Sequence record: PQ850603.1
Reading direction: 5' to 3' (one strand)
Source: Escherichia phage GertrudWoker_Bas73
DNA: 43,856 bases
Shown: in pieces, positions 24,317 through 37,019 of the stretch
Layout of the letters: each line of letters starts with the position of its first letter
Numbering within the stretch: the stretch's first letter is position 1
The notes under the pieces: generated by a model
What the model was told of the DNA's origin: nothing
The model's input: the letters and a program-made list of their open reading frames with translations, nothing else
Database searches by the model: none
Program-made: the position numbers and the translations under genes

Positions 24317-24453
24317 TACTCTTCCGATAACTTCTCCAGCACAAACGCCAGTTGCGCATTAGCGGCATCTCTCTGTTGCCGTAGGCGTAGAACCTCCTCT
24401 TCGAGTTCCTTGATACGTTTTTGCAATGCTGGAATCGGGGCTATGATGTTCAT
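24316..24453 (-). CDS. possible small coiled-coil protein (45 aa)
   Basis: ATG overlaps helicase stop (ATGA); heptad-like 'LQKRIKELEEEVLRLRQQRD'. Confidence 0.3.
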   Translation of the reverse strand: MNIIAPIPALQKRIKELEEEVLRLRQQRDAANAQLAFVLEKLSEE

Positions 24454-25874
24454 TTCTTACCTCGTCTCTTCATGTAGTTAAGCAACTCTTCCTGTACCGA
24501 TTTCTTCTCGTCGGTACGCGCGGCAACAACCTCGTCCAGCGTGTCTTTAGCGACTATGTGATAAAGGAACACCGGGCGCTCGTGCCCAGCTTGTTTCTGG
24601 CGAACAGGGCCGATGCGCTCGACAACCTGCAAATAGTGCTCAAGATTCCAGCCTTGTGAAATAAACGCCAGATGATGGCCGCCGTCCTGTAAATTCAAAC
24701 CATGCCCGGCTGACGCAGGGTGTACGCATAAGATTTCTATTTCGCCGCGGTTCCACGCTTCCATCTGCTTATTACCCTTCGCGCCTTTGGAAAACGCCTG
24801 CGCCTGTGGGAATCGCTTAAGGATGCGCTCAAGTTCGTGCTTGAACTGATAGGCGACCAGCAACGGCGCGCCCTGCAACTCCTCCACAATTGACTCCAGC
24901 GCATCAAGTTTCGTGTCGTGCACTTTCTCCCATTCTTTGGTTGATTCGCCATCTGGCCCCGATACATACACGGCACCGGAGGCAATCTGTAGGCACTTCG
25001 ACGTCTTCGCCGCAGCGTTAGCCGCTTCAACTTCTCCGCTTTCCAGTTCCGCGAATAACTTCTCCTCCATATCGATGTACGCCTGACGTGCTTTCTTCGG
25101 CAGGTCGATTTCAACCGGCACAATAATCGGCGCTTCACACCCGAACCACTCGGCGGCGTCAATCGTGAGACTAATGTCCTTCATCTTCTGGTGAATTTCA
25201 TTATCCGCACCCGGGCGTGCGTGGTATTCACGGGCCATCGCAGATTTCCCTTTCTGTACCGAGTTAAACCAGCGGTCGGTGAATGCTGTGTACGATGACC
25301 CCAGGCGCTCGCCTGCGTCGATAAACCAGTTCTGCCCCCACAAGTCCTTGAGGCCGTTTGGTGACGGCGTGCCAGTCAGGTTAATGAAACGCTTAACTTT
25401 GCCAAATGCCACTTTACTAAGCGCCTTTGCCCTCTTGCTGCCTCCAGAACGGCTACGGAATGACTTGAGCTTCGTGCTTTCATCGGCGACGATAACCGTA
25501 AAAGGCCAGTCGTCTTTGCCGTAGTAGTCAATAAGCCACTCGATAACTTCGTAGTTCGTGCACACCACGTTAGCATCTGACTCCAGCGCCGCGATGCGGC
25601 GCTTCTCCAAACCAGTCGCGTCTACGACACGCAGACATGGGAAATTCCACTTAGTTTGTTCCGCCGGCCATGTGCCTGATGCAACGCGCAACGGGGCGAG
25701 GATTAACACGCGGTCCTCTTCTGTAAGCTGCCCGTTGCGGAACAGTCGGTTTAATGTCCACAGTACGCTGCCAGTCTTCCCGGCGCCCATGCTCGCCCAA
25801 ATATTACAGCGATGGTGCCGCAACATGAACGAAGTCATTAGCTTCTGGTATTCGCGCCTTTGAAACTTACTCAT
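24450..25874 (-). CDS. SF2 DNA helicase (DEAD/SNF2-like)
   Basis: Walker A 'SMGAGKTGS', motif II-like 'VIVADEST', C-terminal helicase motifs 'HPASAGHGLNLQ' and 'QVVERIGPVRQ'. Confidence 0.75.
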   Translation of the reverse strand: MSKFQRREYQKLMTSFMLRHHRCNIWASMGAGKTGSVLWTLNRLFRNGQLTEEDRVLILAPLRVASGTWPAEQTKWNFPCLRVVDATGLEKRRIAALESDANVVCTNYEVIEWLIDYYGKDDWPFTVIVADESTKLKSFRSRSGGSKRAKALSKVAFGKVKRFINLTGTPSPNGLKDLWGQNWFIDAGERLGSSYTAFTDRWFNSVQKGKSAMAREYHARPGADNEIHQKMKDISLTIDAAEWFGCEAPIIVPVEIDLPKKARQAYIDMEEKLFAELESGEVEAANAAAKTSKCLQIASGAVYVSGPDGESTKEWEKVHDTKLDALESIVEELQGAPLLVAYQFKHELERILKRFPQAQAFSKGAKGNKQMEAWNRGEIEILCVHPASAGHGLNLQDGGHHLAFISQGWNLEHYLQVVERIGPVRQKQAGHERPVFLYHIVAKDTLDEVVAARTDEKKSVQEELLNYMKRRGKK

Positions 25875-26661
25875 TTACGGCCCCCATGAACGCCTTTATA
25901 AATTCAGCGGCTACTTGCGGGACGATAGCATTGCCGTAACCGCGCAATCGTCCCACTCTGGCGGGTACCCCATTAGCCAGCGGGAATGTGCTGGGTTCAA
26001 CTGGCCTGAATTTTCCATCCCGGCATCCGAGCCAGTCAGCATCTGACCAGAACCCGTTAGGCGGATTGGCTGTGTCAGAGATGCCTCTGTTTGCAGATTG
26101 TGGCCCCCGTTCCTGCCCTGATGGCCTGCTCCCGCCGAGTTGTTCGCACACGGTGTTGGCCAGTTGCTGCGCTCCGAAGAACAATCGATTCCTTTTGTGC
26201 GGTGCGCCGACGCTACAAGCTGGGAGTACGGCAAACCCGACGGCGTAGTCTTCTCTTTCCAGGTGAGTTTGTAAATCGCACATCCACGATTTTGCAATTG
26301 CTGCCGCAACCTGCTCCCCAAAGATGACTGGAGGGTGGCACTCGCTGATGAGGTCGAGGAGCACAGGTGCGAGGTGTCTCTGGTCGAACTGTCCGAGTTG
26401 CTTTCCTGCCGTGCTAAACGGTTGGCAAGGCGGACTTCCCGTCCATATAGGCGTATCTTCAGAAACTCCCGCAAGTCTGAGCGCGAGAGGCCAGCCGCCG
26501 ATACCCGCGAAAAAATGACACTGGGTGAACCCGTCAAGGTCTTCTGGCTTAACTTCGGTAATGCTTCTTTCATCTACAACTCCAAAAGGTATGTGACCCT
26601 GTTTTATCAACTCACGCAGCCACGCGGCTGCGCCTTTATCCCATTCATTGTAATAGTTCAT
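25867..26661 (-). CDS. DNA (cytosine-5)-methyltransferase, compact
   Basis: motif I 'FAGIGG', motif IV '[13 protein letters not shown]' (catalytic Cys), motif VI-like 'FGEQV', motif VIII-like 'KRNRLFF'; only 264 aa. Confidence 0.7.
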
Positions 26662-26849
26662 TTCGCCACCAGCACCAGCTCTTTACGCCCGAACGCCGTA
26701 ACGTTACCGGTTACGTCTTCAATAACCAGTTTACCGTTCGACTCGACGAACACCGTATCAACGGCAACAGGACGACGGGTCTTAACGTTGAAAATCATGT
26801 CGCCTGGTACGATGTCACGTGCTGGTTTGCGGTCATATTCGTGTTTCAT
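26658..26849 (-). CDS. hypothetical protein
   Basis: 63 aa; stop overlaps methyltransferase start (ATGA); preceded by promoter 26884-26912. Confidence 0.45.
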   Translation of the reverse strand: MKHEYDRKPARDIVPGDMIFNVKTRRPVAVDTVFVESNGKLVIEDVTGNVTAFGRKELVLVAK

Positions 26850-27165
26850 TTCTAAATTCCTTATATTGTTGGGGTATGTGCTTACTATAATAGTCTGCTA
26901 TTAGGGTGTCAATCTGTTTTATCGAACCAACGACAAAAACATTTGCGCCACGTTTACGTATACGCTCGTGTTCCCGTAGCTGGTGCGGGTCTGGCTTAGT
27001 GTTTTCGTCTTTCTTCACCTCGACGAACCAGACGATGCCGCCGGGTAGAATTGCCAGCAGGTCAGGAGCGCCTGAACGTCCTTCGTAGGAAAGTTTACGA
27101 ACGAGGCCACCAATAGCCTCGAATCGCTCTTTTGCGTATTTCTGGATGCGGCCCTCTTTAGTCAT
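26833..27165 (-). CDS. VRR-NUC domain nuclease
   Basis: PD-(D/E)XK-like 'GAPDLLAI ... VWFVEVKKDEN'; ~110 aa. Confidence 0.6.
   Translation of the reverse strand: MTKEGRIQKYAKERFEAIGGLVRKLSYEGRSGAPDLLAILPGGIVWFVEVKKDENTKPDPHQLREHERIRKRGANVFVVGSIKQIDTLIADYYSKHIPQQYKEFRNETRI
26884..26912 (-). promoter_or_regulatory. sigma70-like promoter TTGACA-N17-TATAGT with AATAGtctgCTATT palindrome
   Basis: minus strand reads 'TTGACAccctaatagcagactatTATAGT'; lies inside the 3' end of the VRR-NUC ORF. Confidence 0.45.
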
Positions 27166-27396: not shown

Positions 27397-27528
27397 TCAT
27401 TCCAGCACCCACATATAAATTGCGATGAACATGCCCAATATGGCAACCATCATGCCGTATTGTCCCTCGTGACAGTAGACACCGGCGGCAAATCCCGCCA
27501 GTACCGCGATAATCAGTTTACTTGGCAT
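27397..27528 (-). CDS. possible small membrane protein (43 aa)
   Basis: RBS 'gaaggag'; hydrophobic 'LIIAVLAGFAAGVY ... MMVAILGMFIAIYMWVL'; start overlaps HNH gene end. Confidence 0.35.
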   Translation of the reverse strand: MPSKLIIAVLAGFAAGVYCHEGQYGMMVAILGMFIAIYMWVLE

Positions 27529-28213
27529 CTCTACATTCTCCTTCAGGCCACCTATTAGGAAAAGACGGTATATGTGAAACTTCTCTCGCCGCTTTTATTC
27601 TTTTAATGGTGGGACCTATCTCCGTAACCATTTCAATGAATGTAAACCGGTGTCCTCTGGTAAGATTACATGTCTGACAACAAGAAACGCAGTTAGATAC
27701 TATGTGCCCGCTTGTATTATCTATGCGGTCTACCCCGACTTTTGTAGTGCTTCCGCAATAATGGCATGGCTGTGATATTAGTTTAATAACGCTTTCCAGT
27801 GTTAAATCGCAGATAAGCCCTTTTCCTGAATCTGCTCTTTTGTATCCTAACAAAAGCGCGTACGCCCGCGTCCTTTGGTCCTTATTCACCCGTTCCCTGC
27901 GTTGCTTGTTGAGACACTCCCGGCAATCTTTCCTGATATGAGAGCCATTACTTTTATTTCCTTTCCTGAAGTTTTCCTCTGTTAAAGGTTTTACCTCCCC
28001 ACACTTTCTGCATTTAACAGGCTTCCCAGTGAAAACATACCAAGGGCTTTCTCGTCTGGATTTACCTTGTAATTTAAGTTTTTCGTCATACTTTTCCTTC
28101 CTGTTAGCATTTACACACTCTTTACACCAGCGTTGCAGCCCGAGGCGCGTTGACTTTGAAAAATACTCTGTAGTCGCCGGTTTATCTTCGCCGCATCTTG
28201 AACACTTTTTCAT
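27518..28213 (-). CDS. HNH endonuclease (homing endonuclease-like) with N-terminal zinc-ribbon repeats
   Basis: 'CHYCGSTTKVGVDRIDNTSGHIVSNCVSCCQTCN' HNH motif; two 'CxxCGxxKP...CxECxN' repeats; AT-rich versus flanks; track start TTG 28225, ATG 28213 with GGAG RBS preferred. Confidence 0.7.
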   Translation of the reverse strand: MKKCSRCGEDKPATTEYFSKSTRLGLQRWCKECVNANRKEKYDEKLKLQGKSRRESPWYVFTGKPVKCRKCGEVKPLTEENFRKGNKSNGSHIRKDCRECLNKQRRERVNKDQRTRAYALLLGYKRADSGKGLICDLTLESVIKLISQPCHYCGSTTKVGVDRIDNTSGHIVSNCVSCCQTCNLTRGHRFTFIEMVTEIGPTIKRIKAAREVSHIPSFPNRWPEGECRDAK

Positions 28214-28223
28214 TAATAACTCC

Positions 28224-28259
28224 AAAAAAAAATACCGACATAGCCATTATATCGGTATT
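28224..28259 (-). terminator. terminator-like hairpin between polymerase and HNH genes
   Basis: minus strand: 8-bp stem 'aataccga/tcggtatt' with 13-nt loop followed by 'tttttttt'. Confidence 0.4.
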
Positions 28260-28290: not shown

Positions 28291-30471
28291 CTACTTGGCG
28301 TATCTGTACATTTCGCTACCTTCTGCTACAAGAGGGAACCCCTCCGCCCACTCCGGTAATTCGCACATCAACCGCTCAAGCTCTGCAACATTGTATTCTG
28401 GCGTATCTGGTGTTTCGCAGATAATTTCGTCGTGTACGTGAAGCACAATAGGATAGCCGTTTGCTTCAACGTTCAGCAGTGCATTGGCCAGCAAATCACG
28501 GCACAGCGCCTGAGTACAGTTTTCCACGAGTTTACCAGAGTAGGTGTACTGGAAGCCCCACTGACGGGTTAACTGGTTCTCCCCCTGGTACTTGATGCGT
28601 ACGTTAGTAGACACTTTTCCATCTTCGTCTGTTTCTTTCGACACGCTTAACCCGACGCCCGGATAAGACATAACGCGACCCGACGGCAACGTCATGCGCA
28701 ACCACCAGCCGGCGACTTTGTTGCCGTTGTTGTCTGTCTCTACGTTGCGCGAAAACTTAACCCCCCTAGGCCCCGCGGTGAACTCTTTACCTGGATTGCG
28801 GATAGCGGCCATAGCTGCGTCTTCAATATCTCGCCAGAAAGCTACTGTTTCAGGGTGTGACTCTCGCCACATACGCTTGATAGCGTCACAGGTACGCCAC
28901 ACTTTCTTATCAAGAATATACGATGGTCGGTCATCCTTCTCCCCGGGTCGCGGCGGTCGCTTGGCTTCCTGAATACGTGCCCATTCATAGCCGCGTGCAG
29001 TAGCCGCCCAGATGTGGTCCGGGAAAGTACCGTCCATTGTTTTTGACATATCAACAAGGTCAAGTCCGAGGTTCTTAGCAAACTGAACGAAAGCGCCAAC
29101 ACCACCAGCGTAGCCGAGGCCAAGCTCGCAGGCTTTACCAATCTGGCGCAAGTCTTTGCGTTCCTTCTTAATGTAATCCGGCTCCATGCCGAACATCTTA
29201 CCCGCGGTTACACAGTAAATGTCCAGCCCGGCGCGGAACGTATCTAGCGCGGTTTCTTCGCCTGCCAGCCACGCAAGCCCCCGACCTTCAACGTTAGAGT
29301 AATCGGCGACGACAAACTTTTTTCCGGCTTCCGGGATAATGCAGCTACGCACCGTCGATGCCGTTAGCTTAGCGACATCGAAACGGCGATGCGCGCGGCC
29401 CTTAAGTAACGCTGAAATACCTTTATCCAGTTCATCATCGTGATAGTACCCACGCGCGAGGTTCTGCGGCTGAAATCCTTTACCGGCAAATCGTAATGTA
29501 CGCTTGGCTCCGCCGTACTGAATGCAACCACGACGGCGGTCGTCCGACGAGCGCCCTAACAGCAGCGGGTTATATTTCGTTGACGCTGTGGACGCGGCCC
29601 CGAGGCGCATTTCGATAATCGTGCGTGCGTCGTCCGGTAAATCATCATCCGCCAACAGGTCGTTAAGCGTAGACTTCTGCGCGTTGTGGATGCGGTGCGC
29701 TGGTGCAAGTTCACGCAGAATCGGCAGGAAGTCTTTACCAGTAAGCGAGCCGCCGTATTTGCGCTGTGCTTCTTCCTGTAGCTGGGCCTTGTGTTTTTCC
29801 ACGGCTTCAATCGCGGCTTCCGCCAGCGTCACATCAACCTTAAACCCACGGTCGTTAATCAACTGGTCCAGTTCCAGTACACGGTCTTCGAACTCGGAGT
29901 TACCCCAACGCGGCAGCTTATGGAAGACTTCACGCATCGCAGTGATGTCGCTCACGGCGTACATGATGAACATCGCCCACTCGTCAGGGTGAGTTTCTGC
30001 GGTGTAGCGGCGGATTTTGTAGTTCTTCGGCGTCGGTTTAGAGAAACGCTTAATCAGAGCCTTGCCGCGTTTATCTTTCGCGTTGTCTGCAGACACGCCC
30101 AGCACTTCGCACAGCGCATCAAGAGAACCCGGCAGCGCGTGACGGAACGCCCAAATCATAGTATCAATGGTGTTACTTACCGGAATATCAAAGTCCCAGC
30201 AGTGTTTCATGATTAGGCGATCGAAAAGTCCACCGTTGTGCCACACCATCTTGATGCGGCTGTTGGGCTTAACAAGGCGGCGCAGTGCGCGGTGTAAATC
30301 CCCCGGCATGTCGCTGCCGTCGGTGCAATCCCATACCCGCACAGGTTCGTCGTCAAAAGCATATGTACAGATAAGCACTTCTGTAGTTGGGTGTTCGGCG
30401 TAAGCGTAAGAGCCGACTTTCTTTAAATCGGCTTCGGAGAATGTCTCAAAGTCTAAGAACAGGTAACTCAT
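28291..30471 (-). CDS. DNA polymerase I (family A) with 3'-5' exonuclease domain
   Basis: Exo I 'FLDFETFS'; motif A 'DYSNVEGRGLAWLAG'; motif B 'RQIGKACELGLGYAGG'; motif C 'VLHVHDEI'. Confidence 0.9.
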   Translation of the reverse strand: MSYLFLDFETFSEADLKKVGSYAYAEHPTTEVLICTYAFDDEPVRVWDCTDGSDMPGDLHRALRRLVKPNSRIKMVWHNGGLFDRLIMKHCWDFDIPVSNTIDTMIWAFRHALPGSLDALCEVLGVSADNAKDKRGKALIKRFSKPTPKNYKIRRYTAETHPDEWAMFIMYAVSDITAMREVFHKLPRWGNSEFEDRVLELDQLINDRGFKVDVTLAEAAIEAVEKHKAQLQEEAQRKYGGSLTGKDFLPILRELAPAHRIHNAQKSTLNDLLADDDLPDDARTIIEMRLGAASTASTKYNPLLLGRSSDDRRRGCIQYGGAKRTLRFAGKGFQPQNLARGYYHDDELDKGISALLKGRAHRRFDVAKLTASTVRSCIIPEAGKKFVVADYSNVEGRGLAWLAGEETALDTFRAGLDIYCVTAGKMFGMEPDYIKKERKDLRQIGKACELGLGYAGGVGAFVQFAKNLGLDLVDMSKTMDGTFPDHIWAATARGYEWARIQEAKRPPRPGEKDDRPSYILDKKVWRTCDAIKRMWRESHPETVAFWRDIEDAAMAAIRNPGKEFTAGPRGVKFSRNVETDNNGNKVAGWWLRMTLPSGRVMSYPGVGLSVSKETDEDGKVSTNVRIKYQGENQLTRQWGFQYTYSGKLVENCTQALCRDLLANALLNVEANGYPIVLHVHDEIICETPDTPEYNVAELERLMCELPEWAEGFPLVAEGSEMYRYAK

Positions 30472-30530: not shown

Positions 30531-31157
30531 TTAACGGCGGCGACGTTCGCGGCGAGGTGCTTCATCTTCTTCGTCGTCTTCCAGGTCGTTGACGCTGGCG
30601 GCAACTTTAGAACCACCAAACGCTTTACCTTCGCCGACGTATTTAATTGCCAGCAGGTTAACACCGAGAACTTTGTATTTCTGGCTAAACCAGACTTCCA
30701 CGCTTACGTTGGCAACGCAGCCGCTGTAAACCTGTCCACCTTCAATCTGTTCGCCTTCAACGTTGAAGTCAGGCTCTACTTGAGTTTCACCTTTTTTAGA
30801 GGTTACAATCAGAGGCTGTTTCTGTGCCTTCGCTTTGAAGTAGAAGCCTTCCGGGAAGTCTTCGAACGGATTGTCGCGCTCGGCAATGTCTTTAATCGCA
30901 CATTTATCCATGTGCTTACCTTCGCCGTAGTTGGACTTCATCCATTTCTCGGCAGCGGCGGCGCCTAACGCTTCTTCGACTACCGCGTAAACGGTGTCGT
31001 AGAGCGCGTCGATTTGCGCGTGGTCGGACGGCAGGATAATAGTAGCGCTGTACTGACCTTTAGTGATTGAGCCATCGTCGTTTTCACGGTCTTTTTCGCG
31101 TTCGAATACGTTAACCCAGGCAGTGTTTACTTTACGCAGATTTAATTTCAGTCCCAT
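30531..31157 (-). CDS. ssDNA-binding protein (T7 gp2.5-like)
   Basis: OB-fold-like 'FYFKAKAQ', 'QIEGGQVYSGCVANVSVEVWFSQKYKVLGVNLLAIKYVGEG' resembling gp2.5; acidic 'DLEDDEEDE' then basic 'RRERRRR' tail. Confidence 0.55.
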   Translation of the reverse strand: MGLKLNLRKVNTAWVNVFEREKDRENDDGSITKGQYSATIILPSDHAQIDALYDTVYAVVEEALGAAAAEKWMKSNYGEGKHMDKCAIKDIAERDNPFEDFPEGFYFKAKAQKQPLIVTSKKGETQVEPDFNVEGEQIEGGQVYSGCVANVSVEVWFSQKYKVLGVNLLAIKYVGEGKAFGGSKVAASVNDLEDDEEDEAPRRERRRR

Positions 31158-31205: not shown

Positions 31206-31234
31206 AGTGATTAGAACTATAATAGCTAACTATT
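31206..31234 (-). promoter_or_regulatory. sigma70-like promoter TTGACA-N17-TATAGT with AATAGctaaCTATT palindrome
   Basis: minus strand 'TTGACAcatgaatagttagctatTATAGT' ~45 nt upstream of SSB start. Confidence 0.5.
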
Positions 31235-31433
31235 CATGTGTCAAATAAAATTTTGCAATAGGGATTATGTTCTCGAAATTAAGCATATTGGCCGGTTCGA
31301 ACTCATCCTCTACAGGGTCGTATCGCATCATGGTACCGTTCAAGAACGTGAACGATTCCGAGTGTAGATACCCATCCCAGCGCCATACCATCAAAAAATC
31401 TTTATCAGTCGGCATTTCATTTACTTGAATCAT
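31230..31433 (-). CDS. hypothetical protein (67 aa from ATG at 31433)
   Basis: ATG overlaps exonuclease stop (ATGA) and is preceded by 'GAGGAGGA' SD formed by the exonuclease C-terminal codons; track start 31463. Confidence 0.45.
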   Translation of the reverse strand: MIQVNEMPTDKDFLMVWRWDGYLHSESFTFLNGTMMRYDPVEDEFEPANMLNFENIIPIAKFYLTHE

Positions 31434-32725
31434 TCTAAATCCTCCTCTGTAACTTGATTCCACTCAGGACGTGTGTCATCCGCCGTTGCGACGCATGGCG
31501 CACCGGGCTTACGGGTAATGAAGTCTTTCAGTTCTTCTTCCGGTACAATTTTAACCGCTTCGGTCGGTGTCATAAGAACTACCTTTTGCAGCATAGTACC
31601 GTACTTCTCGAATACTGCGTCGGTATCTTTCCACGCACGATTACCGGGGCGACCTTCAACCAGTTTGTATCCTGGCACTTTCTTACCTGAATGCAAAGCA
31701 GCAGCCATCGCTTTCTCAACCTTGTCGATGTGCTGGCGCAACAACGGCAGCTTCTCATACTCAGCGACGAGTTGCTCTGGCGTAAGTTCCAGCGCACAGT
31801 CGTCCTCAAGTTCTTCCGCCAGTACCGCGTTAACGGTTTTTGTACGAGCTGCGCACTGTTCCGAGAAACGACACCACTGACAACCATCTACCGACGGCTT
31901 GAAGTCCGACGCTTTAAGGTTCTTCTTGCCACGGGAATAAGCATCAAGGGCTAACAGCGCTCGTTTCCGCGCGAACTTAGCGAACAGCTCCAGACCTTCA
32001 ACCGAGATGTCCCATTCCGACGCGCCTCCAGCATACGGCTGGAAGATGACCAGACGAACCACGGTGATGTTATAACGTCTCTTGAGTCGGCGATAAACAC
32101 CGAGAGCGTAAAGCATAAGCTGCTTGTTTTCTTTCGCCTCGACACGATGCCGCCCTGTTTTCAGGTCGCCAATAATGAGCATGTGCTCGTCGGTGTTAGC
32201 CAGTTCCTGAACGGCAACAAGGTCAGCGGTTCCGAACGTCTCTAAATCATCTTCATCGCCGTCTTCGCTATCAATAGGTACTTTGTACCCTGGGTGCAAT
32301 ACCTGAGTAAGATTTACCCGCATTTCCAGCTTGGCGTAAGTCGCTACATCGATAATCGCCTTACAATAGTCAGTGTACTTGCGCACCTGCTCAATCATAT
32401 CCGCCGTAATCAGTACCGCGCCTTTCATTGGGCTGATTAGTGCCTTAATCTGGCCTTTACCCTCATCCAGCACGTAAGCACCGACTTCACGCTCTAACGG
32501 CAACGCAGTGCCTTTGATGTACTGGTTTAGGTGCATCTCCGCTATTGTGTGCATGGCCGTACCTAATACAGCAGCTTTACCCGACGTGTTAGGAATATCT
32601 TTTTCACAGGCCAGTGATGCGGCGCAGCTTAGCCACTTTTTAGCACCGGATGGCGACAATAAGGCGTGTACATCGTTATTACCGCCGCGTTCTTTAAGAA
32701 TCATTCTTCTACCCTCTCCACCCAA
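31430..32725 (-). CDS. PD-(D/E)XK exonuclease (Cas4/RecB-like, Cys cluster)
   Basis: 'IIGDLKTG' and 'NKQLMLYALG' nuclease motifs; C-terminal 'CQWCRFSEQC'; C-terminal tail 'TEEDLE'; start possibly at internal Met 7 codons in. Confidence 0.65.
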   Translation of the reverse strand: MGGEGRRMILKERGGNNDVHALLSPSGAKKWLSCAASLACEKDIPNTSGKAAVLGTAMHTIAEMHLNQYIKGTALPLEREVGAYVLDEGKGQIKALISPMKGAVLITADMIEQVRKYTDYCKAIIDVATYAKLEMRVNLTQVLHPGYKVPIDSEDGDEDDLETFGTADLVAVQELANTDEHMLIIGDLKTGRHRVEAKENKQLMLYALGVYRRLKRRYNITVVRLVIFQPYAGGASEWDISVEGLELFAKFARKRALLALDAYSRGKKNLKASDFKPSVDGCQWCRFSEQCAARTKTVNAVLAEELEDDCALELTPEQLVAEYEKLPLLRQHIDKVEKAMAAALHSGKKVPGYKLVEGRPGNRAWKDTDAVFEKYGTMLQKVVLMTPTEAVKIVPEEELKDFITRKPGAPCVATADDTRPEWNQVTEEDLE

Positions 32726-33152: not shown

Positions 33153-33653
33153 TTATTCTTCTTCGAAATACTTGTTCTTGATTGCCGTCAGGCGTTCCAG
33201 GTATTCGGCCAGGTCTTCGTCTTTAATCGCGGCAATCTTCATCTTCTTACCGGTGAACTCTTCCAGCAGTTCATCAGAATCATCGCACGCGGCATCGCTC
33301 GGACCTTCGTTAATTGCATCGTCGATAGCCTGAATCTGGTCGCGCAGAGACTTATAGTCTACTTCTTCTTTCTCTTCTTCCGGCTCTGGCGTCGTTTCCT
33401 CTACTTTAGCTTTACGCGGCTTGCGTTTTGGCTTCTCTTCCTCCGCCGGTTTAGTGTCAACTACGTCTTCACCTTCAACCGGGATTTCTTTTGTTGCTTC
33501 TTCAGCGCACTCAGCTACCGCTTCTTTGGTGTACGATACCGTCTCTACTTCCAGCGGCGTGGCAACCTGAACAACTTGTTTCGCACTGTTCGCGGCAATC
33601 AGTTCGTGCGCAACTACGAAACGTTCCAGTAATACTAAGAATTTCTCTAACAT
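33153..33653 (-). CDS. hypothetical acidic protein
   Basis: 166 aa with Glu/Asp-rich stretches 'PEPEEEKEEVDY', 'DDSDELLEEF'. Confidence 0.45.
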   Translation of the reverse strand: MLEKFLVLLERFVVAHELIAANSAKQVVQVATPLEVETVSYTKEAVAECAEEATKEIPVEGEDVVDTKPAEEEKPKRKPRKAKVEETTPEPEEEKEEVDYKSLRDQIQAIDDAINEGPSDAACDDSDELLEEFTGKKMKIAAIKDEDLAEYLERLTAIKNKYFEEE

Positions 33654-33933: not shown

Positions 33934-33962
33934 ACTATAATAGCGAACTATTCACATGTCAA
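33934..33962 (-). promoter_or_regulatory. sigma70-like promoter TTGACA-N17-TATAGT with AATAGcgaaCTATT palindrome
   Basis: minus strand 'TTGACAtgtgaatagttcgctatTATAGT'; the same region on + strand carries 'TATAAT' facing the Cro-like gene. Confidence 0.5.
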
Positions 33963-34026: not shown

Positions 34027-34242
34027 ATGCAACCATCTGAACTAGGCATCCGTGTAGAACAACGCCGCAAAGAACTCGGCATCTCCCAGCGCCGTTTGGC
34101 GGCCCTGACCGGCGTTTCCCAGGGCGCGATTAACCAACTGGCACTTGGAGTAACTCAGGACGTCCGCCCGGCAACGCTGTTCAAACTGGCGGAAGTTCTG
34201 GAAGTAGACGCCAAGTGGCTGGCGTTAGGTGAAGGGGCTTAA
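34027..34242 (+). CDS. HTH XRE-family (Cro/CI-like) transcriptional regulator
   Basis: 71 aa; 'ISQRRLAALTGVSQGAINQLALG' classic HTH; RBS 'aaggag'; only + strand gene in the leftward block. Confidence 0.75.
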   Translation: MQPSELGIRVEQRRKELGISQRRLAALTGVSQGAINQLALGVTQDVRPATLFKLAEVLEVDAKWLALGEGA

Positions 34243-34257
34243 AGCCCCTTTCTTTTT
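34233..34257 (+). terminator. rho-independent terminator after Cro-like gene
   Basis: 'aggggc ttaaa gcccct' followed by 'ttctttttt'. Confidence 0.6.
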
Positions 34258-34259
34258 AC

Positions 34260-36500
34260 CTATTCCAAATCCTCCTCTGTCACCACCAGCATCTCATTTG
34301 GTTCGTATAGTGTCTTCGGCCTTAATCTATCCCCTATTCTTTCGGGTATACGATATGTTCTCGGTACTACTTCGCCGTTAGCATCGCAACCAAGCATTAG
34401 TTCTCCATCTTTCAACATTTTATCAAGATGGGTGTTAGTCACAGAGAAGTCACCGGAACGAGCCACTATCTGCTGCTGAGTAAAACCGCGACCTGTGTCA
34501 TCTGACTGTTGCAGGTCTTCCAGTGCCGAAAGTATTGACTCCTTCCTTACTTCATCCCTGCCGCGTTTAACTTCTTCCTTTACTTTTTGCTTACCTTCTT
34601 TCGTCAACCCTTCTTCCCGCTCTTTCTCCTCGTCAGTTTTGAACGGCTCGAAACCCCACGGCATCAACACAAGCGCCTTGTGTGGTTCAGGAAGGTCCAG
34701 GTTTACGATTGTGCCGTATTCTTCTGTGCCCCCCAGGAACTCAACCGCACGGTACTCTTTCGGCGGCGGAGCTTCGCGGAACTGCACAGACTCCAGCACC
34801 ATGCCAACCGTTTTCTGTTGAGGACCGTGCTTAAATTTCGAGTGGTATACGTTTATTTGACGGTCGGTTGCACGTTCGATTGTCAGTTCCACGTCAACAC
34901 CCGCATACAGCGCCCCACTGCCGCGTGCTTTCTTTCCACCCTTCGGCGTATGGTGGACAACGCCTACTGCGGCTTTAGTTGCATCGCGTACTTCTTTCAG
35001 AATGGCGATAACTTTACCCATGCCGATTGCTGTTGATGAACTGTTCTCGTCGAACTTATCAATCGTCAGTGCCAGGGTCTGGTTAAGGGTGTCGAACGCA
35101 ACCATGCCAATTGGCTCGTCGCCAGCAGTTTCGCGCATTAACTTAATCAGGCTTTTAAGTTTGCCGACTTCGCCCATATCGATGACGTGTACATAATCTT
35201 TACCTTCCCCGCCATATTTAGCCGCTAGTGCATCAATACGGGTGCGTGTAGCTGCGCCACCCTCACCATCAATATAGAAATGGTGGCAACGCTGGGTATC
35301 CGCCCCCGCAAACCTGTACCCGGCGGCGCTGAGGTACATCATCCCCAGCGTATAGAACGATTTGTACGTGCCAGATTCCCCGACGATATCCCAGATACAA
35401 TCCGACGGCATGTACCCCTCAACGACGAAATCAGCCTTTACCGGCTCCGGTAACTCGTCCTCCTCTGGGTCCTCGTCGCCTTCCAGGTCGTCGAGGCTGC
35501 ATGAAACGGATTCACGTACACCCCAACCGATGGCCTCGGCGACTTCACTGAACGGCAGCCCGGTCGCATCGCACGCATACTTCCACACCTCTTTAGGTGA
35601 CATGCCTTCGGTTGCCGTAATGTCGGTGTCGTGAATCATGGTTACGTTCGGCGCTTCGTACCCCTCGCGCGGGAAGCACAGCAGGAAGTCATCCGGGCGC
35701 GGGGTCGGGTCGCTGTAGTTCTCGGCATGTTCCGGCGTAGCTGGCATTTTCAGGCCGCGTGGCGTCATGATGCCGCCGTACTCGAACGCCAGTGCTTCAA
35801 ACGCATCGGTAAACGCGGTGCGCAGTTCTTCTGGTATCTGGTAGTCAGATGCGCTGCTAACGTCAACGGCGGGGATACCTTCCAGTAGCTCATCCGGGTC
35901 AATCAGGTCGTTGCGGCGCGACCAGATAACGGTAGAGCCGACCGGAGGCAGGTACATCGGCTGGGACAGCGTAAACCCGCTGCGGTCGGCGCCCATGCCT
36001 TTGAAGAAGTGCTCCAGCAATCCATGACGAACACGGATGATGTCGCCGCCTTCGACCGGGCGGGCCAGCGGCATGACGACGCGAAAGCGCGGGGACTCGT
36101 CGGTATGTGACGCCGTGGTATATAGGCACATCGCCTGGCGGCTGCGCTTAACCAGGCGCACAGCTTCCTGATACTCTTCCGGCGTTGCACTGTCGAAGTC
36201 CAGATACGCCAGCGACGATTTGCTTACAGACGCGTCACAGCGATAGAAGAAGCCTTTACGCGCCTGCTTAAAGTCTCCAGTTTCCAGGTCTTTTACGGTG
36301 CTGTGCGTAGAGTCGCACGCGGCTGTGATATAGCCGGGGGCGGTCTTAGGGTTAACACCGTCACGAACAGCATCAAGCGGCTGGATTAACTCTTTCAGGT
36401 CGTCCAGTGTTGCCGTGTGTGTGGTTCTGACGTTTATATCCTTTTTCTCTGCCCGCGCGTTGCGACGTGACCACGAGTAGGATAAAATTACATCGGACAT
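34260..36500 (-). CDS. DNA primase/helicase (RecA-like ATPase with N-terminal primase-like region)
   Basis: 746 aa; Walker A-like 'VGESGTYKS'; 'VAFDTLNQT ... VVHHTPKGG' RecA-like core; C-terminal tail 'TEEDLE'. Confidence 0.6.
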   Translation of the reverse strand: MSDVILSYSWSRRNARAEKKDINVRTTHTATLDDLKELIQPLDAVRDGVNPKTAPGYITAACDSTHSTVKDLETGDFKQARKGFFYRCDASVSKSSLAYLDFDSATPEEYQEAVRLVKRSRQAMCLYTTASHTDESPRFRVVMPLARPVEGGDIIRVRHGLLEHFFKGMGADRSGFTLSQPMYLPPVGSTVIWSRRNDLIDPDELLEGIPAVDVSSASDYQIPEELRTAFTDAFEALAFEYGGIMTPRGLKMPATPEHAENYSDPTPRPDDFLLCFPREGYEAPNVTMIHDTDITATEGMSPKEVWKYACDATGLPFSEVAEAIGWGVRESVSCSLDDLEGDEDPEEDELPEPVKADFVVEGYMPSDCIWDIVGESGTYKSFYTLGMMYLSAAGYRFAGADTQRCHHFYIDGEGGAATRTRIDALAAKYGGEGKDYVHVIDMGEVGKLKSLIKLMRETAGDEPIGMVAFDTLNQTLALTIDKFDENSSSTAIGMGKVIAILKEVRDATKAAVGVVHHTPKGGKKARGSGALYAGVDVELTIERATDRQINVYHSKFKHGPQQKTVGMVLESVQFREAPPPKEYRAVEFLGGTEEYGTIVNLDLPEPHKALVLMPWGFEPFKTDEEKEREEGLTKEGKQKVKEEVKRGRDEVRKESILSALEDLQQSDDTGRGFTQQQIVARSGDFSVTNTHLDKMLKDGELMLGCDANGEVVPRTYRIPERIGDRLRPKTLYEPNEMLVVTEEDLE

Positions 36501-36558
36501 GTTGTATTTCCTTCAGCAAGTAATTTGGCCTCGGCGTTCACCGCGTCGGGGCTTTCTT

Positions 36559-36792
36559 TTATTCCAGGTCTTCTAAAGTAGCGGTCATTCCGCGAACTTC
36601 AGCAACAGCACTATATTTCCCGCCAACATTTTTCACGACACCGGATTTAACCAGTACCTTCAACGACCCTTCAATAATGGCTGAACTATAGTACTTAAAA
36701 TAACTACGGCGCAAGTCGATAACGCTGCACGACCCTTTTTTACGTGTTAACGAAACGACCGCCGTAAATACGCGTGACTGGAACTCGGTCAT
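36559..36792 (-). CDS. hypothetical protein with C-terminal 'TLEDLE' tail
   Basis: 77 aa; stop-start overlap with upstream HTH gene. Confidence 0.45.
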   Translation of the reverse strand: MTEFQSRVFTAVVSLTRKKGSCSVIDLRRSYFKYYSSAIIEGSLKVLVKSGVVKNVGGKYSAVAEVRGMTATLEDLE

Positions 36793-37019
36793 TTCACGTT
36801 CTCCTTAATCCACGCTTCCACTTTCTCCGGGTCAAACGTACCTGGCTGACGGCGGCCCATAATGCGAATACAACAATCCGGGAACTTCCCACTCTTTAAC
36901 CAGTTATTCAGCGTTCGACGAGTAACCCCGATACGCTCAGCTACCTCATTCTGCGTCATTCTCAAACCCTCATTATCAGTTAACGAAACAAGTATACATT
37001 GCGAATAATGGGAAATCAA
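36789..37019 (-). CDS. small HTH DNA-binding protein (AlpA/excisionase-like)
   Basis: 'MTQNEVAERIGVTRRTLNNWLKSGKFP' HTH; likely start at internal ATG (36959) with RBS 'gaggg'. Confidence 0.5.
   Translation of the reverse strand: MISHYSQCILVSLTDNEGLRMTQNEVAERIGVTRRTLNNWLKSGKFPDCCIRIMGRRQPGTFDPEKVEAWIKENVK

Follow-up and report, generated by a model that had tools for sequence, protein, structure and literature searches.

Three proteins encoded in the replication region of Escherichia phage GertrudWoker_Bas73 (PQ850603.1), a DUF2800 PD-(D/E)XK nuclease, a primase-helicase and a 77-residue winged-helix protein, share the acidic C-terminal tail (T)EEDLE, and the SSB (single-stranded DNA-binding protein) carries an internal copy of the same motif. 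Judging by the conservation and covariation of the tail, we think it rather probable that it is a short linear docking motif, a common plug with which the nuclease, the helicase, the winged-helix protein and the SSB would fit one phage socket. The stretch of DNA analyzed here (all 43,856 nucleotides, hereafter the window) is the nearly complete genome of a Kagunavirus-like (Guernseyvirinae) coliphage, with ~91% identity to vB_EcoS_XY1 and NTEC3 over the replication region.

The nuclease ends ...NQVTEEDLE (stop codon TGA, 31430-31432), the primase-helicase ...LVVTEEDLE (stop codon TAG, followed by a hairpin and no gene) and the 77-residue protein ...TATLEDLE. Translation confirmed these ends, which an earlier reading made from the letters alone (the sequence-only reading) had proposed as a common tail, and the near-identical 21-nucleotide 3' ends that it reported for the nuclease and primase-helicase genes do agree at 18 of 21 positions, including the exact 14-mer ACAGAGGAGGATTT, of which the window has no other copy. 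Among the 777 six-frame stop-to-stop open reading frames (ORFs) of at least 30 residues in the window, only these three have a [DE]L[DE] C-terminus. With the window's amino-acid frequencies, 0.0012 of its ~70 genes would be expected to end in EDLE by chance, and the probability of three or more is ~3e-10; the shared ends are real and not due to chance. The core of the tail is [ST]-acidic-acidic-D-L ([ST]-[DE]-[DE]-D-L). None of the tails examined has the terminal phenylalanine with free carboxylate after an acidic run that is typical of the E. coli SSB C-terminus (D-D-D-I-P-F-COOH), and a test for the bacterial sliding-clamp-binding motif QL[SD]LF was negative, the tails being acidic and without the Gln-Leu core.

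Two further motif-like sequences were set aside. KDEDLAEY in a highly acidic 166-residue protein was left out of the count, as it lies within a probable helix, 24 residues from the C-terminus; this protein, which has KDEDLAEYLERL near its end and terminates in ...KYFEEE, is kept in 47 related loci. An acidic loop of the nuclease, DSEDGDEDDLET (32237-32254, residues 158-163 in the 431-residue reading from TTG 32725), contains a second EDDLE directly ahead of the catalytic FGTADLV. It is absent in relatives, where the loop varies, and we treated this lineage-specific, unconserved DEDDLE as a probable coincidence rather than a second copy of the motif. The product of the 67-residue ORF after the nuclease has no acidic tail.

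The copy in the SSB, S-V-N-D-L-E-D-D followed by EEDEAPRRERRRR, had not been noted in the sequence-only reading. Its residues D191, L192, E193, D194 and D195 are invariant in homologues down to 61% identity, and it lies 12 residues past the F of F-G-G, at which the folded part of the protein closes; the A-Y-D of the Enc34 ORF6 SSB lies 11 residues past the equivalent F. The window SSB matches PF10991 over residues 5-198 (E=2.1e-15; 57 bits against a cut-off of 26) and, weakly, the structure 4JG2. In the window, the same acidic-hydrophobic motif is thus present on the SSB (D-L-E-D, internal) and at the end of the primase-helicase (E-D-L-E), a sharing that we did not find in Dhillonvirus or in the Klebsiella clade described below.

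The C-terminus of the SSB is acidic and then basic, as had been described, with a long acidic tail ending ...SVNDLEDDEEDEAPRRERRRR. It has no terminal hydrophobic or aromatic residue, such as F232 of T7 or those of the ends ...DLV and ...DEV in relatives (the protein ends RRERRRR), likewise in all enterobacterial clades examined, and from its composition and family precedent the tail is probably unstructured. AlphaFold2 gave the full SSB a predicted local distance difference test (pLDDT) score of 36 with a 12-sequence alignment. The extension is conserved in Kagunavirus and Jerseyvirus. In Dhillonvirus and the Klebsiella clade it is enlarged, with K/R blocks alternating with D/E blocks, and the SSB ends in a long polyampholyte, e.g. 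PRKSKKSKRSDDDDDEKPRKRRKPRDDEDEDDDEDEAPRKRRRR (L058-L073 in Dhillonvirus, L050-L056 in the Klebsiella VLCpiS11a-like clade, and L072). The window's EDDEEDEAPRRERRRR looks like a short form of this end.

Conservation and covariation of the tail

We scanned IMG/VR with the nuclease and obtained 74 related loci, with identities of 96% to 44%, in four clades. Word-indexed searches with the 77-residue protein, the SSB and the helicase C-terminus found only close relatives, and the diversity described here comes from the locus scans and an exhaustive search of the nuclease family. The comparison of homologue C-termini, on which the sequence-only reading had staked its proposal, found the tail kept in the 74 loci, in nucleases down to 44% identity and in primase-helicases down to 26-32%, with varying codons. 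In Kagunavirus, the nuclease, the helicase and the 77-residue protein end (T/S)EEDLE, TEEDLE and TLEDLE; in Jerseyvirus, TEDDLE(A), TEGDLE and TPEDLE (ATPEDLE in relatives). The Klebsiella VLCpiS11a-like clade has SDEDLS on the nuclease, SDEDLNS on the helicase and TATDEDLE on an unrelated 63-residue protein, and Dhillonvirus has TDEDLSNE on the nuclease and TDDDLKD on the helicase, with no small tailed protein found. The variants covary by clade among nuclease, helicase and small protein. At one locus (L013), another small ORF after the nuclease ends KKEDLE.

Between zero and five residues follow the leucine in these tails (endings E, S, NS, KD, SNE or EALTS), so a free C-terminus directly after the motif is not required. 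Relatives encode the tail with differing codons (TTA, TTG, CTG and CTT for leucine; GAT and GAC for aspartate), which argues that selection acts on the peptide, and by this evidence the conserved unit is the peptide and not the DNA. The tail is also kept where no gene follows, and at the helicase end it persists together with the preceding 20 residues even in proteins with a replaced N-terminal half (31% identity). These helicases are mosaic (loci L006, L015, L023, L024, L030 and L033): in several close relatives, only residues 315-746 align, at ~31% identity, and the last 20 residues, IPKTIYEPNEML(T/V)VT(E/D)EDLE, are the same save for single-residue changes. Further primase-helicase variants in relatives stand at 53% or 65%.

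The exhaustive search returned 10,808 DUF2800 relatives, and we analyzed the best 150 representatives. An intact C-terminus with a near-invariant ..D(K/P)RP.. is present in 129 of these 150; the tail that follows it (median 17 residues, net charge -4) contains an acidic-hydrophobic dipeptide in 115 of the 129. The window nuclease, with DDTRPEW-NQVTEEDLE, fits this layout of D(K/P)RP plus a short acidic tail. Two tail forms are common in the family, D-D-F-E-D-L/V (referred to here as M1) and a terminal x-D-L-V/I/A (M2). The leucine of the window nuclease lies 10 residues past R-P, the same offset as the M1 phenylalanine in distant homologues, and EEDLE is therefore best read as M1 with phenylalanine changed to leucine and M2 lost. 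The nuclease also has the cysteine pattern C...C-x2-C-x5-C (LSC...DGCQWCRFSEQC), all four cysteines being invariant in 30 distant homologues, which suggests an iron-sulfur cluster of the AddB/Cas4/Dna2 type. The activity of a homologue, Bas14 B14T, depends on catalytic residues (bioRxiv 10.64898/2026.07.14.737667).

In 80 more distant loci, a DUF2815 SSB gene directly follows the nuclease gene. The M1 pattern, here [DE]-F-x-[DENS]-hydrophobic, occurs within the last 28 residues of 72 of the 80 SSBs and 55 of the 80 nucleases, and the two proteins share a bipartite tail whose ends match within a genome (DMI/DMI, EGLV/EGLV, DGLV/DGLV, DLS/DFS, DLA/DFA, DLI/ELI). Across 49 unique nuclease-SSB pairs, the last residue is shared in 29 (11.1 expected) and the last two in 24 (9.0 expected), with permutation p<1e-4 for each, values that are optimistic because shared ancestry of the sampled genomes inflates them. 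Such a variety of matched endings would be hard to obtain by descent alone, since two different proteins must change together. Gene conversion is not the cause of the similarity either, as positions with identical residues agree in codon no more often within genomes (33%) than across genomes (40%). At two loci, ORFs of 215-344 residues with beta-clamp-like sequence (..IRTYLNGV..; L099:13920-14567 and L119:10786-11820) end EADCDLA and DSDVGDLV, resembling the local SSB/nuclease tail.

Some named phages have larger sets of tailed proteins. In Enc34, just eight of 665 six-frame ORFs, all of them annotated proteins, end [DE][DE][DE]V, with varying codons: the primase, ORF3, the DUF2800 nuclease, the SSB, the small terminase, ORF17, a recombination-associated protein and ORF64. 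The Chi-like phage iEPS5 repeats this pattern, and M1 changes in step from one phage to the other: the Enc34 SSB has DAYDED and its nuclease GAYDDED, the iEPS5 SSB DAWDED and its nuclease GAWDDED. Ruegeria V18 has five tailed proteins, its primase, nuclease, SSB and two small ORFs, with the ends DLLG, ILG or LLA. In BPP-1, the end xxLV occurs on four proteins (nuclease, SSB, bbp45 and one that resembles a small terminase), and the small proteins bbp41 and bbp44 end DDFEAV and DDFEVVA. In a staphylococcal Triavirus the ends are EDDFDKL (nuclease), EDDFDEL...EDFL (SSB) and LEDLI (primase), and D-F-[DE] is common to nuclease and SSB in Streptococcus, Bacteroides and Xanthomonas phages. Small terminase tails match the SSB/nuclease of their own genome in Enc34 and iEPS5 (DDDEV) and in BPP-1 (AGLV); two metagenomic small terminases (L076:2904-3377 and L087:2888-3361) share their genome's tail as well (DDGSDLV and TEDDLLA), and an Enc34 ORF adjoining the capsid gene also bears the tail. 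The small-terminase tails hint that packaging is linked to SSB-covered DNA, or that the tail has a wider role.

AlphaFold2 models the 77-residue protein (pLDDT 87) as a winged helix over residues 1-66 (pLDDT >90) with a low-confidence tail. A Foldseek search with the model returned only generic winged-helix neighbours (the LexA N-terminal domain, the MotA N-terminal domain and RPA32C) and no specific family. We rejected the idea that the protein is a copy of the helicase C-terminal domain, as BLASTP found no similarity (E=1.4). The protein looks like a small adaptor that binds DNA or protein, or like a competitor, using the same plug, and the 63- and 60-residue proteins of relatives and BPP-1 bbp41 and bbp44 look similar.

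Candidate sockets and alternative explanations

In the explanation that we favor, the plug would be a single hydrophobic residue surrounded by acidic ones, placed at the tip of a flexible C-terminus, and (T)EEDLE would be the local version of M1 (D-D-F-D-D, D-A-Y-D-E-D and similar), which the gp2.5-type SSBs carry in their own C-terminal tails. By displaying the SSB's plug, the nuclease, the primase-helicase and the winged-helix protein could all occupy one phage-encoded socket, which would tether them to the replication/recombination machinery or make them compete there. The sequence facts, conservation, covariation and codon behavior are observed, and from them we infer that the tails bind, what the socket is and how this would affect function.

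The receptor is probably encoded by the phage. In three lineages of E. coli phages the tail is a different one each time (EEDLE; DEDLSNE/DDDLKD; and DDFDD...DLI in vB_EcoM-606R2), which also makes a host-encoded reader unlikely. Within the surveyed loci, the polymerase is never tailed (its C-terminus is ...YRYAK or ...YRYRKD in all clades), nor is the SNF2 helicase, which has a basic end; in Enc34 and iEPS5 the SNF2 protein ends acidic, ...WDDEE(D).

The likeliest socket would be a tail-binding groove on the oligonucleotide-binding (OB) domain of the SSB, a placement that would load nuclease and helicase beside SSB-covered single-stranded DNA. In the 1.5 Å structure of the Enc34 ORF6 SSB the last eleven residues are disordered (PMC5686142), so that the last traceable residues, ...TSDAYD by the GenBank sequence, are exactly M1. 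The tail end inserts into the groove of a neighbouring SSB, in a manner alike in two other DUF2815 crystals and in T7 gp2.5 (PMC5686142). On account of these crystal contacts the folded SSB domain is slightly favored, a serious candidate that we stop short of calling probable. A T7-style socket on the family A polymerase is a somewhat doubtful alternative: the tails of T7 gp4 bind two basic patches on the family A polymerase gp5 (PMC12593628), and the gp2.5 tail binds polymerase and helicase as well as its own DNA-binding cleft (PMC12593628, PMC5686142). By analogy with T7, both sockets may be used. Polymerase and SSB were also the two hubs suggested in the sequence-only reading, and they are still the strongest candidates.

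The sequence-only reading had likened the tail to the acidic C-termini of T7 gp4 and gp2.5, and our comparison lends support to that analogy: the DUF2815/Enc34 SSB family is a structural homologue of T7 gp2.5 (PMC5686142), and distant SSB tails covary with nuclease tails. The two systems have in common an SSB of the same structural type, a primase-helicase with an acidic tail and one key hydrophobic residue, and a family A polymerase. Unlike in T7, the hydrophobic residue in the window is leucine and not a terminal phenylalanine, lying 0-5 residues from the end in relatives and 16 in the SSB; the window SSB ends in poly-arginine, and the helicase is of the AAA_25 type and by Pfam not a gp4 homologue. 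Only gp2.5 (...DGDF) and gp4 (...DTDF) share the tail in T7, where the gp6 exonuclease lacks it, whereas here the tail extends to more clients (a PD-(D/E)XK nuclease plus small proteins; in Enc34 as many as eight proteins, the small terminase among them) and, in DUF2800-SSB phages, forms a lineage-specific, covarying 'code'. The sequence comparisons support the view that the tail pattern extends the gp2.5/gp4 principle by a new motif, a wider client set and such a code.

Other known systems resemble the tail in part. With the Enc34 ORF6/DUF2815 SSBs (4JG2, 4KLK), the window SSB shares the family match and a long acidic tail, and its acidic-hydrophobic-acidic segment is as far from the folded domain as theirs; the Enc34 paper considers the SSB tail solely with regard to contacts between SSBs and to DNA discrimination (PMC5686142). 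The tip of E. coli SSB (DDDIPF) also combines an acidic tail with hydrophobic residues on a disordered linker and is a shared address in replication, repair and recombination. There, however, the SSB alone is tailed and its partners have pockets, whereas here the partners bear an SSB-like tail, an inverted arrangement, and no window tail has the terminal phenylalanine. Clamp-binding motifs (QL[SD]LF, the PIP box) and the EEVD ends of Hsp70/Hsp90 bound by tetratricopeptide repeat (TPR) proteins likewise use one short peptide for many clients of one receptor, an analogy of logic only, as there is no sequence similarity and we identified no clamp or TPR protein in the window. The duf2800-gp2.5-polA module has been described (PMC8093625), and the literature on DUF2815 and DUF2800 reports both the conserved set of genes and a nuclease C-terminus that is disordered. 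We found no description of a tail shared across the DUF2800/DUF2815 module in a literature search that was incomplete, so an earlier report is possible.

Several points weigh against a shared docking plug. Acidic tails are common on DNA-binding proteins generally. The client set differs by lineage, the primase is without the tail in distant proteobacterial loci, and the SSBs of Dhillonvirus and the Klebsiella clade have no hydrophobic motif at all. The tails on the small terminase and other non-replication proteins of Enc34, Chi-like phages and BPP-1 would not be predicted by a purely replisomal hub, and the inflation of the covariation p-values belongs here too. Lastly, the contact between tail and groove in Enc34 is a crystal contact of unproven biological role.

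One alternative would be tails that regulate themselves, each folding back on its own DNA-binding surface as a DNA mimic and tuning affinity or specificity with no common partner. All carriers are DNA-binding or DNA-processing proteins, the Enc34 SSB without its tail distinguishes single- from double-stranded DNA differently, and in gp2.5 tail and single-stranded DNA compete for the protein's cleft (PMC5686142). Self-regulation needs charge alone, however, and leaves unexplained both why unrelated folds of one genome share specific residues and why these change jointly between lineages (T-E-E-D-L against S/T-D-E-D-L, Y/Y against W/W, DMI/DMI, GLV/GLV); we consider it unlikely.

Less likely still is a tag read outside the replication machinery, whether by a host factor, by a protease or chaperone for timed degradation, or as a packaging or compartment-targeting signal. 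C-terminal tags are known to address proteins to ClpXP-type machines, and the presence of the tail on the small terminases of Enc34, iEPS5, BPP-1 and some metagenomic loci, and on the capsid-adjacent ORF, would agree with such a role. The different tails of phages that infect the same host species argue against a host reader, we know of no acidic degron of the (T)EEDLE form, and the small terminase candidate of the window itself (1-585) ends GEAEE, not DLE. In addition, the SSB tail of the DUF2815 family is a documented protein and DNA-mimic interaction element (PMC5686142).

The Shine-Dalgarno sequence in the tail codons

The sequence-only reading had proposed that the tail codons of the nuclease supply the Shine-Dalgarno sequence of the next gene, and the comparison with relatives supports this. 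The E-E-D codons, GAG-GAG-GAT, place GAGGAGGA six nucleotides before an ATG (31433-31431) that overlaps the last codon and stop of the nuclease (GAATGA) and opens the 67-residue ORF; the junction reads AGGAGG, 7 nucleotides, and an ATG overlapping TGA (ATGA overlap). We compared the junction forms at Kagunavirus and Jerseyvirus nuclease ends. GAGGAGGA (tail ...GAGGAGGAT...) is present at 22 of 23 junctions with a downstream ATG overlapping the stop and at 0 of 18 without one. At all 18 loci where the nuclease ends in TAA, relatives without the 67-residue ORF, the tail is encoded by GAAGA(A/C)GA(T) and the TTGACA-17-TATAGT promoter found ahead of the window's SSB gene follows directly. This association of codon choice with context supports a double use of the tail codons, which would serve as the ribosome-binding site of the 67-residue ORF. 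Together with the overlap and the PHROG match of that ORF, it argues for translational coupling to the nuclease. The tendency is weaker at the helicase end, where a strong Shine-Dalgarno sequence occurs at 14 of 17 coupled junctions and also at 13 of 51 uncoupled ones; the window is uncoupled there.

The arrangement in the window is exactly that of translational coupling with an internal Shine-Dalgarno sequence and an ATGA overlap. It differs from usual coupling in that the ribosome-binding site is written over codons of a peptide that is itself functional and conserved, with a choice of GAG or GAA that relatives make by need. The overlay is a clean natural case in which a peptide motif and a translation signal share bases, and both solutions are found among relatives. 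The slot that separates the nuclease from the SSB promoter (in the window and in L002, L003, L013 and L041) holds at least five different small ORFs in relatives, all at the ...GGATTTRGAATGA junction, and appears to be a hot spot for gene insertion and exchange.

A cause at the DNA level, with the 3' ends shared as a ribosome-binding or coupling junction or as a copied recombination linker and the peptide as a by-product, is very improbable and as the primary cause already largely refuted by these comparisons: the 18/21 identity and unique 14-mer of the VTEEDLE ends, the tracking of the overlapping ATG by GAGGAGGA and the variety of downstream ORFs at one junction would fit it, but the peptide persists with GAA-GAA codons where a promoter and not a gene follows (18/18), is kept at the helicase end before a hairpin, uses other codons in the 77-residue protein and the SSB, and occurs in Enc34 with no Shine-Dalgarno-like sequence in the tails, and within-genome codon identity is not raised. 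The GAA-coded uncoupled variants and the Enc34 tails rule out Shine-Dalgarno pressure as the origin of the acidic tail, and on these comparisons the Shine-Dalgarno sequence overlies the peptide without being its cause.

Gene map and wider meaning

Features of the replication region and of the tails, with positions in the window
Feature	Position	Strand	Remarks
SNF2 helicase	24450-25874	minus	
C5 methylase	25867-26661	minus	
VRR-NUC	26833-27165	minus	
HNH/endonuclease VII-like ORF	27518-28225	minus	235 aa; Lar-like zinc ribbons; between polymerase and VRR-NUC genes
Family A DNA polymerase	28291-30471	minus	Pfam DNA_pol_A; candidate tail receptor
DUF2815/Enc34-type SSB	30531-31157	minus	PF10991
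SSB C-terminal extension	30534-30581	minus	EDDEEDEAPRRERRRR; acidic block, then poly-arginine end
SSB internal motif copy	30573-30596	minus	S-V-N-D-L-E-D-D, by translation
Sigma-70-like promoter	31216-31244	minus	TTGACA-17-TATAGT, scan match 11/12; between 67-aa ORF and SSB gene
67-aa ORF	31230-31433	minus	phrog_6314, E=6e-25, alignment from residue 1
DUF2800 PD-(D/E)XK nuclease	31430-32704	minus	PF10926 E=7.8e-65; PDDEXK_1 E=4.8e-09
Nuclease tail codons	31433-31453	minus	V-T-E-E-D-L-E, by translation
Shine-Dalgarno within tail codons	31440-31447	minus	GAGGAGGA, 6 nt before ATG
Several small ORFs		minus	between nuclease and primase-helicase genes
Highly acidic 166-aa protein	33153-33653	minus	phrog_3127 (unknown function)
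Cro-like helix-turn-helix gene	34027-34242	plus	
Primase-helicase	34260-36500	minus	phrog_3228 'replicative helicase-primase' E=4e-298; Pfam AAA_25
Primase-helicase tail codons	34263-34283	minus	V-T-E-E-D-L-E
77-aa winged-helix ORF	36559-36792	minus	AlphaFold2
77-aa protein tail codons	36562-36582	minus	A-T-L-E-D-L-E
Excisionase-like helix-turn-helix protein	36789-37019	minus	

The HNH/endonuclease VII-like ORF has a match in only 1 of the 74 related loci and is for this reason probably a mobile homing endonuclease. Hairpins at 34231-34251 and 36527-36553 lie directly after the primase-helicase and 77-residue genes and have their T-run on the plus strand, where the first is the terminator of the Cro-like gene; both may work in either direction, since an A-run precedes them relative to the minus-strand genes. 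A second promoter-like site matching TTGACA-17-TATAGT (11/12) lies upstream of a 75-residue ORF (33934-33962, minus strand).

The duf2800-gp2.5-polA module is among the commonest replication modules in tailed phages of Gram-negative and Gram-positive hosts (955 phage records matched the SSB), and a shared, co-evolving tail would give a concrete wiring diagram for its assembly. It would predict a role in replication for small ORFs of unknown function, namely the 77-, 63- and 60-residue proteins and BPP-1 bbp41 and bbp44, and would explain why helicase N-terminal domains are swappable alongside fixed last 20 residues. The tails may also offer orthogonal plug-socket pairs for engineering and may bear on defense systems that sense the DUF2800 nuclease, such as retron type IX.

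More broadly, and tentatively, we propose that phages with the DUF2800 nuclease, gp2.5-type SSB and PolA module use a lineage-specific C-terminal 'tail code', in which the motifs of the SSB would be displayed on up to eight proteins per genome that work at SSB-covered DNA, read by one co-evolving socket. Its carriers would include the nuclease and the primase-helicase, small adaptors of the winged-helix or zinc-finger type, recombination proteins and even the small terminase. The tail pattern generalizes across phyla, and because the code differs between phages of one host, it would act as a compatibility barrier to gene exchange, one that, if real, decides which replication, recombination and packaging genes mosaic phage genomes can exchange.

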